DNA from: Escherichia coli
Lineage (GTDB): Bacteria; Pseudomonadota; Gammaproteobacteria; Enterobacterales; Enterobacteriaceae
Length of the DNA stretch: 64,000 nt
Strand: one strand, 5' to 3'
NCBI RefSeq assembly: GCF_003334405.1
Contig: NZ_QOWM01000017.1
Shown one piece after another: positions 44,536 to 51,970 of this stretch. The notes beneath the pieces were generated by a model that did not search any database, had not been told where the DNA came from, and saw only the letters and a list, made by a program, of their open reading frames with translations. Numbering within the stretch: the first letter of the stretch is position 1; each line of letters starts with the position of its first letter. A program made the position numbers and the translations under genes.

Positions 44536-44616
44536 TGCCCGATGCGCTGCGCTTATCGGGCCTTCATGGTTCGTGCGACATGTAGGCCGGATAAGGCGTT
44601 CACGCCGCATCCGGCA
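44536..44616. repeat. REP elements (BIME) in the hycI-ascB intergenic region
   Basis: Two palindromic units, gcccgatgcgctgcgcttatcgggcc and ggccggataaggcgttcacgccgcatccggc. Confidence 0.8.
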
Positions 44617-44623
44617 CTGTTAC

Positions 44624-46048
44624 CTACTCTAAATCTTCCCCATTACTGGCAATCACTTTTTTATACCACCAGAATGATTTCTTACGCGTGCGCGTCAGCG
44701 TACCGTTGCCTGCGTCGTCACGGTCAACAAAGACAAAGCCGTAGCGTTTGCTCATTTCACCCGTAGAGGCGGAAACTAAATCAATACAGCCCCATGTGGT
44801 GTAGCCCATCAGCGGAATGCCGTCTGCAATCGCTTCGCCCATTGCGCGGATATGTTCGCGTAAGTAGCTGATGCGATAGTCGTCGTTAATCTCGCCATTG
44901 GCAGCAAATTCATCTTTTGCGCCCAGGCCGTTTTCCACCAGAAACAGCGGCTTCTGATAACGATCGTACATCATATTCATGGTGATACGCAGACCGAGTG
45001 GATCAATTCCCCAGCCCCAGTCGCTCACCTGTAGATACGGATTACGCAGCGATTTCACCACGTTCGCCGCACTGCTGTTGTTGGCGTTCATCTCCGCCGA
45101 GGCGCAGCGCGAGGCGTAATAGCTGAAAGAGACAAAATCGACGGTGTTTTTCAGGATTTCATCATCGCCCGGTGCTTTGTTGATGGTTACCCCTTTTTCG
45201 CGGAATACGCGGGCAGAGTAAGCCGGATACGTGCCCCGCGCCTGCACATCGATAAAAAACAGGTTTTCCCGGTCTTTCTCCAGCGCCGCCCAGACATCTT
45301 CCGGCTTGCAACTGTAAGGGTAGAAGTTACCGCCCGCCAGCATACAGCCCACCTGATTTTGCGGGTTAACCTCATGGGCGATTTTGGTGGCTAGCGCACT
45401 GGCAACCAGCTGGTGATGCGCGGCCTGATATTTCACCTGATCCTGATTTTCACCTTCTTCAAACACCAGACCCGCGCCGGAGAACGGGCTATGCAACATA
45501 ATGTTGATTTCATTGAAGGTTAGCCAGTATTTCACCAGACCATCAAATGCTTCAAAGCAGGTTCTGGCGTAGCGGCTGAAAAACTCCACCAGCTTGCGGT
45601 TACGCCAGGAGCCATATTCGGTGACCAGATGCATCGGCACATCGAAGTGGCACAACGTGACCAGCGGTTCGATACCGTACTTTTTACACTCTTCAAAGAC
45701 AGAACGATAAAAAGCAATGCCCTGCTGATTGGGCGTGATTTCATCGCCCTGCGGAAAGAGACGGCTCCAGGCAATTGAGGTACGGAAAACCTTGAATCCC
45801 ATCTCTGCCATCAGGGCGATATCTTCTTTATAACGATGATAAAAATCCGTCGCCTCATGGCTGGGATAAAACTCGTCATCTCGCAACTGAAAACGTTTTT
45901 CCAGCCCCAGTTTCACCGCCATTCGATGCTCGCCGTGTGGGATCATATCGACAGTGGTCAGACCTTTGTCACCTTCACGGAACGCACCTTCAGACTGGTT
46001 GGCGGCAAGCGCGCCGCCCCATAAAAAACTTTCTGGAAATACTGACAT
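44624..46048 (-). CDS. ascB: 6-phospho-beta-glucosidase (GH1)
   Basis: 474 aa from [15 protein letters not shown]1 catalytic motifs (TFNEIN, ENG). Confidence 0.95.
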
Positions 46049-46056
46049 TTTCATCC

Positions 46057-47514
46057 TCAATTAAGACTTACTTCTTTGGCGACGGTCGGTTGTACGCTCT
46101 GATACTTTCGCGCCTGGGCAGCCGCTTCCTCAACAGGAATATCCTCAAAGCCGAGCAACAGTGTGAGGATAAACGACAGCACCACCGCCAGCGCCATGAC
46201 CGCGAACACCCAGACGATGCTCATTGGATTCGCCGGATCGAAGAACTGCACGCTGGTAAATAGCCCCGGCGCTGCCATTGAGTGGCTGGCAAGCCCCGCC
46301 ATACCGGCAACCGCGCCGCAAATAAAACCGCTGATAAGACTGGCGATAAGCGGACGTTTCAGGCGGATCGCCACGCCATATAACGCCGGTTCGGAAATCC
46401 CCGCCATAATGGCTGATGCCGCCGCAGCCAGCGCCGTCTGACGCAGTTCCGGGTTTTTCGTTTTCCACGCCACTGCCAGTGATGAACCGCCCAGCGACAG
46501 GTTAGCGCCGATCTCTGACGGCATGACCATCCCTTCTTTGCCGGTTTCGGCAATGGTCTGAATGATGGTTGGCGTAAAGACGCGGTGCATCCCGGTCATT
46601 ACCAGCAGAGGCCACAGCGCGCCCATAATGGCGACTGAAAGCCAGCCCAGATAACCATGAATGGTGTAAACCAGCGCCGAAATGGCGCTACCGATCCAGA
46701 TACCAATCGGGCCAATCAGCAGGATTGCCAGCGGTGCGGCAATCAACACAATCAGCATTGGTTTGAGGAAGTTTTTGGTCACCGCCGGTGTAATGCTGTC
46801 CACCCAGCGTTCGATATATGACAGGCACCAGGTCATCACCAGCGCCGGGATCACCGTGTAGGTGTATTTCACCGCGGTGACCGGAATCAGGGCAAATTCG
46901 ACATGTTCACCCTGGGCCGCTTTCGCCATCAGTTCAATAAAACTCGGATGTACCAGCACACCCGCGATGGCAATCGCCAGCGACATATTGGTTTTAAATT
47001 TGATGGCGGCAGATGCCGCGACCATCAGCGGCAGGAAGAAGAAAGCACCGTCACCAATCACATTCAGAATGGTTAAGGTCGGCGATCCTTTTGTCAGCAC
47101 GCCGCTCATCTCGAGGATCATTGCCAGCAGTTTGACCATCGATCCGCCGATAATCGCCGGGATCAGCGGTGACATGGTGCCGATCAGCGCATCGAGGATC
47201 CCCGCACCAATGCGACGTAGCGTGAGTTTGGGTTTACCCACGGGCTGTGCGGGCTGCATATCTCCCGGCAGCAGGCTGACGACTTCCTGAAAGGCTTGTG
47301 AAACGGTATTGCCGATAATCACCTGACACTGGTTGTCACTACGTACCACGCCGAGCACGCCGGGGATGGTTTTTAACGTCGGGCTGTCGATAAGTGCATC
47401 ATCTTTGATAACAAAGCGCAACCGCGTCATACAGTGCGTGACCGCCGAGATGTTATCAACGCCGCCCAGTGCCGCTATCACCGAGCGTGCCAGCGCCGCA
47501 TAATTTTTGGCCAT
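46057..47514 (-). CDS. ascF: PTS beta-glucoside (arbutin/salicin/cellobiose) EIIBC component
   Basis: 485 aa; N-terminal EIIB Cys motif ([13 protein letters not shown]) plus membrane EIIC domain. Confidence 0.95.
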
Positions 47515-49460: not shown

Positions 49461-49612
49461 AAATCTTACAGAACTGTTCTGGCATCAAAGGAATTCCCGG
49501 AAATATTCGTAGAATACGGAGCGGGCGGTATCGCCGACCTGTGACTGCCGGATGCGACGCTGTCGTGTCCGGCAGGGCGGGTTACGCAATTCATGATGGC
49601 GGGAATAACTCA

Positions 49613-51865
49613 ATGGCAAAAAACACATCTTGCGGTGTCCAACTGCGTATTCGTGGCAAAGTGCAGGGCGTCGGTTTTCGTCCGTTTGTCTGGCAGCTGG
49701 CACAGCAATTAAATCTTCACGGCGATGTCTGTAATGACGGCGATGGCGTAGAAGTCCGGCTGCGGGAAGACCCGGAAACGTTTCTTGTTCAATTGTATCA
49801 GCACTGCCCGCCGCTGGCGCGTATTGATAGCGTCGAGCGTGAGCCGTTTATCTGGTCACAACTGCCCACCGAGTTCACTATACGCCAGAGCACAGGCGGC
49901 ACCATGAATACGCAAATTGTTCCCGATGCCGCTACTTGCCCTGCTTGCCTTGCCGAAATGAATACCCCAGGCGAACGGCGTTATCGTTATCCGTTTATCA
50001 ACTGTACCCACTGCGGCCCGCGTTTCACCATTATTCGCGCCATGCCTTACGACCGCCCGTTTACCGTGATGGCGGCGTTTCCGCTATGTCCGGCCTGTGA
50101 CAAAGAGTACCGTGACCCGCTCGATCGTCGCTTCCACGCCCAGCCGGTGGCCTGCCCGGAGTGTGGCCCGCATCTTGAATGGGTAAGTCATGGTGAACAT
50201 GCGGAACAAGAGGCGGCATTACAGGCAGCTATCGCACAGTTAAAAATGGGCAAAATTGTCGCCATCAAAGGGATTGGCGGATTTCATCTTGCCTGCGATG
50301 CACGTAACAGTAACGCGGTGGCGACACTTCGGGCGCGCAAACATCGCCCGGCGAAACCGCTGGCGGTCATGTTGCCAGTGGCTGACGGTTTACCAGACGC
50401 TGCGCGCCAGTTGCTTACCACGCCCGCCGCGCCGATTGTGCTGGTGGATAAAAAATACGTTCCTGAGCTTTGTGATGATATCGCCCCTGACCTTAACGAA
50501 GTCGGGGTAATGTTGCCTGCGAACCCGCTCCAGCATTTGCTGTTACAGGAACTGCAATGCCCGCTGGTGATGACCTCCGGCAACCTGAGCGGTAAACCAC
50601 CAGCTATCAGCAACGAACAGGCGCTGGCGGATTTGCAGGGCATTGCCGACGGATTCTTGATACATAACCGCGACATCGTGCAGCGGATGGATGATTCGGT
50701 GGTGCGCGAAAGCGGCGAAATGCTGCGCCGTTCGCGGGGGTATGTGCCGGATGCGCTGGCTTTGCCTCCGGGCTTTAAAAATGTTCCGCCTGTGCTGTGT
50801 CTCGGCGCGGATCTGAAAAATACCTTCTGCCTGGTGCGCGGTGAACAAGCGGTGTTGAGTCAGCATCTGGGCGATTTAAGTGACGATGGCATCCAGATGC
50901 AGTGGCGCGAAGCGTTACGCCTGATGCAAAACATCTACGATTTTACCCCGCAATACGTTGTGCATGACGCGCATCCGGGCTATGTCTCCAGCCAGTGGGC
51001 GCGTGAAATGAATCTGCCGACGCAAACGGTACTGCATCATCATGCCCATGCAGCGGCGTGTCTGGCAGAGCATCAGTGGCCGCTGGATGGCGGTGATGTC
51101 ATTGCTTTGACGCTCGACGGTATCGGTATGGGGGAGAACGGCGCTTTGTGGGGCGGCGAGTGCCTGCGGGTGAACTATCGCGAATGTGAGCACCTGGGCG
51201 GCTTGCCTGCAGTGGCGCTTCCGGGTGGCGATTTGGCAGCGAAGCAGCCGTGGCGAAACCTGCTGGCGCAGTGCCTGCGCTTTGTGCCGGAGTGGCAGAA
51301 TTACTCTGAAACAGCAAGTGTGCAACAGCAAAACTGGAGCGTGCTGGCGCGGGCCATTGAGCGTGGAATTAACGCGCCGCTGGCGTCATCGTGTGGGCGT
51401 TTTTTCGATGCAGTGGCGGCGGCACTGGGCTGTGCGCCAGCCACGTTAAGTTATGAAGGTGAAGCGGCTTGTGCTCTGGAGGCGCTCGCAGCCTCATGCC
51501 ACGGAGTGACGCATCCGGTGACAATGCCGCGGGTGGACAATCAACTGGATCTCGCCACTTTCTGGCAGCAGTGGCTGAACTGGCAGGCACCGGTTAATCA
51601 ACGCGCGTGGGCGTTTCATGATGCGCTGGCGCAGGGTTTTGCCGCGTTGATGCGTGAGCAGGCCACGATGCGTGGTATCACTACGCTGGTATTTAGCGGC
51701 GGGGTTATTCATAACCGTTTGCTGCGTGCACGTCTGGCGCATTATCTCGCTGATTTCACATTGCTCTTTCCACAGAGTTTACCGGCGGGTGATGGCGGTT
51801 TGTCTCTGGGGCAGGGGGTTATTGCTGCGGCGCGTTGGTTAGCGGGTGAAGTCCAGAACGGATAA
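49613..51865 (+). CDS. hypF: Carbamoyltransferase HypF (hydrogenase maturation)
   Basis: 750 aa from [28 protein letters not shown] (acylphosphatase domain); two Zn-finger CxxC pairs; YrdC and Kae1-like domains. Confidence 0.95.
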
Positions 51866-51889
51866 AACGTGTTGCATTTGGACACCATT

Positions 51890-51970
51890 GCCGGATGCGG
51901 CGTAAACGCCTTATCCGGCCTACACATGCGTCCCCGTAGGTCGGATAAGACGCGCCAGCGTCGCATCCGA
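51890..51970. repeat. REP elements (BIME) in the hypF-norW intergenic region
   Basis: Palindromic units gccggatgcggcgtaaacgccttatccggcc and tcggataagacgcgccagcgtcgcatccga. Confidence 0.8.

Follow-up and report, generated by a model that had tools for sequence, protein, structure and literature searches.

The 64-kb stretch of Escherichia coli DNA analysed here (contig NZ_QOWM01000017.1 of assembly GCF_003334405.1; hereafter the window) carries repetitive extragenic palindromic (REP) sequences at three loci, between hycI and ascB, between hypF and norW, and between srlD and gutM. With high confidence, these three loci are standard E. coli REPs or bacterial interspersed mosaic elements (BIMEs), and we infer their roles as hairpins in 3' untranslated regions (UTRs) from published work on the family. 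In a population set of 5,426 complete E. coli genomes, the REP clusters are hotspots of small local change and of insertion of the insertion sequence (IS) IS621. They are not breakpoints of the kilobase-scale changes that affect asc and the higBA island. The elements as such are known biology, textbook REPs and BIMEs at expected positions. What is gained is a classification into an atypical BIME, a BIME-2 and a single z1 REP, together with this population picture of small changes and IS621 insertion rather than asc or higBA gain and loss.

Five REP units at three loci

REPs, which are imperfect palindromes of 30-40 nt, were searched for with blastn-short, using the y, z1 and z2 consensus sequences as queries over the whole 64 kb. 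As a control, 50 Markov shuffles of the window were searched in the same way, and their top score was 28 bits. Five palindromic units scored 32-70 bits and thus outscored every shuffled control, with consensus agreement from 25/28 to 35/35 aligned positions. No clear REP beyond these five was found in the 64 kb by blastn-short against the y, z1 and z2 consensus sequences. Searches with degenerate (IUPAC) consensus patterns returned one match each for the z2 and z1 units against 0.00 expected, and the arms of the palindromes were recovered by an inverted-repeat finder. A first-pass annotation of the window, made from the letters alone, had proposed such a REP consensus search as a check; all five units it yields lie above the shuffle maximum. 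Each unit folds in the canonical manner, with a 4-nt head, a 7-bp outer stem, an internal mismatch and an inner stem. The stem mismatch is present in 5/5 folds and is reduced to a 1x1 mismatch in the srlD/gutM unit. Such a bulge has been described as required in REPs (Ton-Hoang et al. 2012, PMC3333891, and a further source).

Both y units (44582 and 51923) and the z2 unit (51936), three in all, have an intact GTAG head. Two heads are mutated, to GAAG in the z1-like unit (44562-44565, read on the - strand) and to GTAT in the srlD/gutM unit (58449-58452). Since orthologous copies of both units in other strains carry GTAG/CTAC, we class them as point-mutated REP members. All five units are extragenic and lie 3' of genes, two sites between convergent pairs and one between a tandem pair. 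For REPs in general, a location between convergent genes has been given for about 60% and between tandem genes for about 40% (preprint). Queries containing these units find a median of at least 27-39 matching places per E. coli genome. Against published counts of 584-697 REP units in K-12, whose genome measures 4.64 Mb (Ton-Hoang et al. 2012, PMC3333891, and preprint), five units per 64 kb are unremarkable. The earlier description of these palindromes as ordinary E. coli intergenic repeats is thus well founded, given consensus matches far above the shuffles, canonical folds and high copy number. The MG1655 RefSeq table lists no repeat_region features for this stretch.

The hycI/ascB element begins 70 nt after the hycI stop with a z1-like unit on the - strand (44536-44565), which reads TGCCCGATGCGCTGCGCTTATCGGGCCTTC on the + strand from tail to head. 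It is the weakest of the five units (32 bits; blastn-short, 25/28 aligned, span 44536-44563/65), and its head is GAAG where GTAG is canonical; other strains have CCTAC at this position. A 16-nt head-to-head linker, ATGGTTCGTGCGACAT, follows at 44566-44581. The second unit, GTAGGCCGGATAAGGCGTTCACGCCGCATCCGGCA, is of y type on the + strand (44582-44616; 34/35 to consensus, 62 bits; blastn-short and fold) and ends 7 nt from the ascB stop. Published classifications describe BIME-1 as z1 joined to y by a long L linker, frequently with a site for integration host factor (IHF), in single copy, and atypical BIMEs as hybrids between BIME-1 and BIME-2 (Ton-Hoang et al. 2012, PMC3333891, after Gilson and Bachellier). 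Like BIME-1 (RIP), the hycI/ascB element pairs a z1(-like) and a y unit head to head in single copy. In contrast to the long conserved L linker with its IHF site, its linker is 16 nt long, or about 0 nt in some strains. A consensus search with the IHF motif WATCAANNNNTTR found no match in the linkers. Because the linker is only 16 nt long and lacks the IHF consensus, the element is assigned to the atypical BIMEs, as a two-unit form with z1-like and y units head to head across a short linker. The assignment to BIME-1/RIP was rejected on these points and on the variability of the linker, which is forward, inverted or absent depending on the strain.

At hypF/norW, a y unit on the - strand lies 23 nt after the hypF stop (51889-51923; blastn-short and fold). 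It matches the consensus at 35/35 positions (70 bits), and Durrant et al. 2024 (PMC11208160) used exactly this sequence among their three REP queries. It is followed by a 12-nt linker, ACATGCGTCCCC (51924-51935), of the short head-to-head type of BIME-2, called S. The z2 unit on the + strand, GTAGGTCGGATAAGACGCGCCAGCGTCGCATCCGACA (51936-51972; 48 bits; blastn-short, IUPAC consensus search and fold), ends 20 nt from the norW stop. On its tail side stands the flanking motif TTTTAGGCACAGTAGCCCAC (51973-51992); where strains have 2-4 units, the next unit of about 98 nt is preceded by a near-identical motif. We read y, S linker and z2, head to head, as one BIME-2 unit. BIME-2 elements consist of z2 and y with a short S linker and form tandem arrays that differ in copy number from strain to strain (Ton-Hoang et al. 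2012, PMC3333891). Binding and cleavage by DNA gyrase are among the properties ascribed to them. The first-pass annotation had placed the paired REPs at 44536-44616 and 51890-51970 and a REP-like palindrome at 58451-58479. All are real, with coordinates off by no more than 1-2 nt: the second pair spans 51889-51972 and the single palindrome 58449-58478, and the latter is more than REP-like, as it matches z1 at 27/29 positions.

This srlD/gutM element (+ strand, 44 bits; blastn-short, IUPAC search and fold) is internal to the srl/gut operon, whose genes are read from the - strand; the srlD stop precedes it by 43 nt, and the gutM start follows it after 31 nt. It has a GTAT head and a stem in which one mismatch is closed. 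Compared with the z1 consensus GCCTGATGCGCTACGCTTATCAGGCCTAC it shows two differences, whereas the orthologues of CFT073 and 95-3322 (L013/L015) match at 29/29. One of the two changes in the K-12/O157 copy destroys the GTAG head, and the second replaces a G.T by a G-C pair. In combination the changes lengthen the RNA stem to 10 bp and probably abolish recognition by TnpA_REP. We assign the element as a solitary true z1 REP. Its junction is intact, with a span of 504-505 nt, in 5,406 of the 5,426 genomes, and the REP is fixed. A second hairpin, not a REP, was observed just past the srlD stop at 58495-58519 on the - strand (GCGGAGATCC-ATTAA-GGATCTCCGT, 10 bp, no T-run). In the srl transcript it precedes the z1 REP on the 5' side, and it is kept in four divergent strains, with changes limited to the loop and the closing pair. 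This hairpin may be part of an attenuation or processing signal between srlD and gutM.

Local variation and IS621 insertion at the two BIMEs

The first-pass annotation had also proposed a comparison of the junctions across E. coli genomes. In the 5,426 genomes both BIMEs vary locally. The hycI/ascB junction (query 44266-44823) was matched at 80% query coverage or more in only 3,080 genomes, and the match ends recur at window positions 44485, 44517, 44564, 44580 and 44619. The window type consists of z1-like unit, 16-nt linker and y unit, and two alleles (L016, L017) have the same order with a proper CCTAC head. In O157:H7 only the z1-like unit is left; the y palindrome is cleanly missing and GTAG is kept (...GTGCGACA GTAG GTTAC). 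The y palindrome is likewise missing from a higBA-island allele (L019) with the z1-like unit only. In other alleles z1 directly abuts y (CCT T GTAGG), and these are joined with a 0.6-0.75-kb island that holds a 756-nt hypothetical open reading frame (ORF) and/or a helix-turn-helix (HTH) gene. Further alleles carry IS621.

The hypF/norW junction (query 51666-52192) was matched at the same coverage in 4,689 genomes. Allele lengths were determined on 59 chromosomal rows sampled at even spacing. Of these, about half have the 527-nt span of the window and about a third have spans of roughly 621-625 nt; one span of 819 nt, one three-unit allele and seven rows of 465 nt were also seen. The spacers that were read measure 127, 221-225, 323 and 419 nt, corresponding to one, two, three and four copies of the unit of about 98 nt, which comprises a degenerate y-like unit, S linker, z2 and tail linker. 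The length alleles are textbook BIME-2 copy-number polymorphism. As in BIME-2, y, 12-nt linker and z2 occur in one to four tandem units that vary between strains, although the window allele holds a single unit and the extra y-like units of the longer alleles are degenerate (for example GGATGCGACATGAACGCATTATGTGACCAAC). The 465-nt class is REP-less. Its 78-nt spacer (L007 290-365, strain ECONIH1) contains another GC-rich hairpin, CCCCTCGCCCTTTGGGCGAGGGAG, which may resemble a BoxC repeat, and the 3' end of hypF differs as well.

Insertions of IS621 were counted with junction-specific queries. At hycI/ascB the element is found after ...GGGCCT in 197/5,426 genomes, a count obtained with a junction query that contains the inverted linker and that is thus no independent test of linker orientation. 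At hypF/norW it is found in 12/5,426 genomes, inserted between GGCCT and AC. Strain UPEC-245U has a 1279-nt IS621 in both BIMEs, and E. coli KO11FL has one at hycI/ascB. The copies are 1279-1280 nt long, sit exactly after GGCCT and repeat the CT core at both junctions. With slashes marking the junctions, the hypF/norW insertion reads ...CTTATCCGGCCT / TGTATTATCC...ACAGTATCT / ACACATG..., and the hycI/ascB insertion ...CTTATCGGGCCT / IS / ACATGTCG.... Insertion of IS621 is therefore at the CT core of the REP head.

Natural target sites of IS621 in REPs were reportedly described by Choi and colleagues in 2003. In nature IS621 targets ATCAGGCCTAC, and the target loop of its bridge RNA is exactly complementary to ATCGGGCCTAC (Durrant et al. 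2024, PMC11208160). The insertions at both BIMEs sit at ATCGGGCCTAC or a close relative. As DNA, the REPs would be natural landing sites of IS621, with the bridge RNA pairing with ATC(A/G)GGCCTAC at the REP head. In agreement with known REP targets, natural isolates carry IS621 after ...ATCGGGCCT and ...ATCCGGCCT of these REPs. The window itself differs in that its heads read ATCGGGCCTTC, ATCCGGCCTAC (twice), ATCCGACCTAC and ATCAGGCATAC, so that 0/5 are a perfect target; its copies of the IS621 sites are 1-2 mismatches from the published targets. No IS621 is present in this block of the window.

The hycI/ascB linker exists in two orientations in E. coli, the forward TCATGGTTCGTGCGACAT of the window and the inverted ACATGTCGCACGAACTAT. 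The inverted linker adjoins IS621 in both IS-bearing alleles that were read (L003, L012). It also occurs without any IS in 450/5,426 genomes, and its origin as a by-product of IS621 insertion was rejected on this count. Among the forms seen here, only the inverted linker offers the perfect target ATCGGGCCTAC beside ACATGTCGCACGAAC. An active flip of the linker between the inverted REPs would toggle the susceptibility of the site to the bridge-RNA-guided IS, a scenario that we consider unlikely. The flip could proceed by TnpA_REP cleavage at CT on both strands or by template switching at a cruciform. As causes of the inverted linker, a micro-inversion between inverted REPs, template switching and TnpA_REP action are candidates.

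At the DNA level, REPs would be non-autonomous repeats which the REP-associated tyrosine transposase TnpA_REP (RAYT) would create, and whose copy number it would alter by cleavage at CT in single-stranded DNA. In vitro, TnpA_REP carries out strand exchange and cuts inverted REPs and linkers at CT (Ton-Hoang et al. 2012, PMC3333891). The copy-number change, the gain or loss of palindromes and the linker variation seen here would fit these in vitro activities. The tnpA_REP gene lies outside the window. In practical terms, the spacers are unsuitable as stable strain-typing markers or primer sites because they vary between strains.

Loss of asc, the island next to hycI and the search for an inversion

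The two clusters lie at both ends of the ascBFG-hydN-hypF block, as the first-pass annotation had stated, and it had called them typical sites of rearrangement. For small local change and IS621 insertion this description is apt; the loss of asc and the island are not REP-ended, and a REP-to-REP inversion of the block is seen in no genome. By difference of counts, asc is absent from about 730 of the genomes. The breakpoints of an asc-less allele (L002) define a deletion of window 44681-48778, from inside ascB to the ascG stop. Asc-less genomes retain one half of the y REP together with the final 57 nt of ascB, and the next match starts at the ascG stop. Between the 57-nt remnant and the ascG stop region they carry 33 nt of unassigned sequence. 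In the asc-less strain AHB29 (L002 5489-5604, compared with window 44598-44680 and 48779 onwards) the ascB remnant shows about 85% identity. Because this 3' end of ascB persists, the absence of asc is read as an old internal deletion and not as primary absence. A REP-bounded deletion of asc was rejected on the L002 breakpoints, 57 nt inside ascB and at the ascG stop.

Between hycI and the BIME, a variable island stands in place of window 44486-44516; its edges, at 44485 and 44517, lie upstream of the REPs and outside them. In many non-K-12 strains it measures about 0.6-2.3 kb (L002 3188-5488, L003 1688-2960, L010, L011, L019). Its content includes two hypothetical ORFs, the one of 756 nt and another of 429 nt, and a gene for a HigB-family toxin accompanied by an HTH antitoxin-like gene. 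These genes occur in differing combinations and are partly degraded, and the window has the empty 31-nt form.

One could propose that the two BIMEs serve as endpoints of recombination by which the asc-hydN-hypF block is mobilised, deleted or inverted. In favour of this, the y units of the two clusters have inverted orientation, agree at 34/35 positions and are separated by 7.3 kb, asc is missing from about 730 genomes, and the hycI/ascB junction is intact in fewer than two thirds of the set. The breakpoints speak against this proposal, as the asc deletion ends inside ascB and at the ascG stop with half of the y REP surviving, and the island edges lie outside the REPs. Moreover, a synthetic junction query for the predicted y-REP-to-y-REP inversion gave 0/5,426 genomes at 80% coverage or more. 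The genes hydN-hypF stay in place in asc-less genomes, and for this reason the REP-bracketed block does not behave as a unit. Recombination endpoints of this kind are therefore highly improbable here.

Predicted roles in the transcripts and neighbouring features

At the RNA level, REPs act as local partial Rho-dependent terminators and as barriers to 3' exonucleases, with a strength that depends on context (Harris et al. 2026 preprint). The RNA hairpins that the convergent pairs hycI/ascB and hypF/norW have in their 3' UTRs would accordingly be expected to block 3' exonucleases and to cause partial Rho-dependent termination. The transcripts of hyc, asc, hydN-hypF and norVW probably have the two BIMEs as their 3'-end structures. 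A REP that follows a stop codon at less than 16 nt can reportedly reduce how much the gene upstream is translated (Liang et al. 2015). The y REP past the ascB stop could damp AscB synthesis, since its distance of 7 nt is under this limit. In the srl operon, the z1 REP would favour srlAEBD over gutM-srlR-gutQ, by making the upstream message of the former more stable and attenuating read-through into the latter. A precedent is REP325 of the yjdMN operon, which also lies between tandem genes of one operon, and which both adds to the stability of the upstream message and ends part of the read-through transcription (Harris et al. 2026 preprint). REP325 has 12 alternating z2/y units, in contrast to the single 30-nt z1 unit with a mutated head at srlD/gutM, and the effect at the latter is expected to be weaker for this reason. 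A further difference is the non-REP hairpin just upstream of the srl element. These locus predictions bear on the expression of hycI, ascB, hypF, norW and srl/gut, above all through the ascB-proximal y REP and the srlD/gutM z1 REP.

Several observations weigh against assigning such roles to all of these elements. The roles themselves are drawn from the literature on the family, and in the same literature REP effects are context-dependent and half-lives are not uniformly changed (Harris et al. 2026 preprint). About 12% of the sampled genomes (7/59) have REP-less hypF/norW alleles, and the element is therefore dispensable. The hycI/ascB spacer has only a modest folding advantage over shuffles (z of -1.4 and -2.3), whereas hypF/norW and srlD/gutM have a large one (z-scores of -4.7 to -5.9). 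The GAAG and GTAT units are probably no longer binding substrates of TnpA_REP, because their heads are mutated and the E. coli enzyme tolerates no mutation of GTAG. Finally, ascB belongs to a cryptic operon, and a translational effect on it may be inconsequential.

The palindromes stand directly 3' of hycI, ascB, hypF, norW and srlD and form GC-rich hairpins, as would ordinary Rho-independent terminators whose likeness to REPs is coincidental. A terminator scan of the three spacers (44466-44623, 51866-51992 and 58418-58521) found no stem-plus-T-run terminators, so that none of the hairpins is followed by a T-run. In addition, the match to the y, z1 and z2 consensus sequences extends over 27-35 positions, beyond shape alone, and the same sequences recur in many places per genome. 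Intrinsic termination as the sole explanation was rejected on the empty scan, and we regard the coincidence as extremely unlikely. The units could also be expressed as stand-alone structured small RNAs similar to naRNA, with a function in trans such as an action with HU on the structure of the nucleoid, as the Rfam family naRNA4 (RF02564) matches them at 35-52 bits. All of these matches are below the gathering score of 59.5 and reflect shared REP sequence, naRNA4 being derived from REP325. The model of compaction by HU and naRNA is unsupported in the 2026 preprint, and no promoter-like sites were found within or directly beside the three REP-bearing spacers. Small RNAs of this kind are very improbable, and standard REPs and BIMEs remain the preferred reading of the three loci. 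Chance Rfam matches to NiCo-AnGGAG (27 bits against a gathering score of 64.5) and to sR36 were rejected as independent RNA genes.

The window is oriented as the reverse complement of MG1655 at about 2.825-2.8435 Mb. Its part 44300-52200 is 100% identical to several E. coli chromosomes and has matches in 5,426/5,426 complete genomes. According to the MG1655 table and the ORF list, hycI (43995-44465, + strand) is followed by ascB (44624-46048, -), ascF (46057-47514, -), ascG (47774-48784, +), hydN (48933-49460, +), hypF (49613-51865, +) and norW (51993-53126, -). The genes norV, norR, gutQ and srlR lie between norW and gutM (58058-58417, -), and srlD is at 58522-59301 (-). These sources agree with the assignment of the two clusters to hycI/ascB and hypF/norW in the first-pass annotation.

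Besides the five units, a degenerate REP-like hairpin, TGCCGGATGCGACGCTGTCGTGTCCGGCAGG, was observed in the spacer between hydN and hypF (49546-49576); it is absent from the first-pass annotation. Its first 17 nt match z2 at 16/17 positions, and its score of 26 bits is inside the shuffle range. The TTATC...CCTAC half is missing; the element folds into a hairpin of 13 bp with -22 kcal/mol, and the spacer folds with z = -4.6. A similar weak match is seen at the same hydN-hypF position in L002. The hairpin may be a decayed REP inside the hydN-hypF operon.

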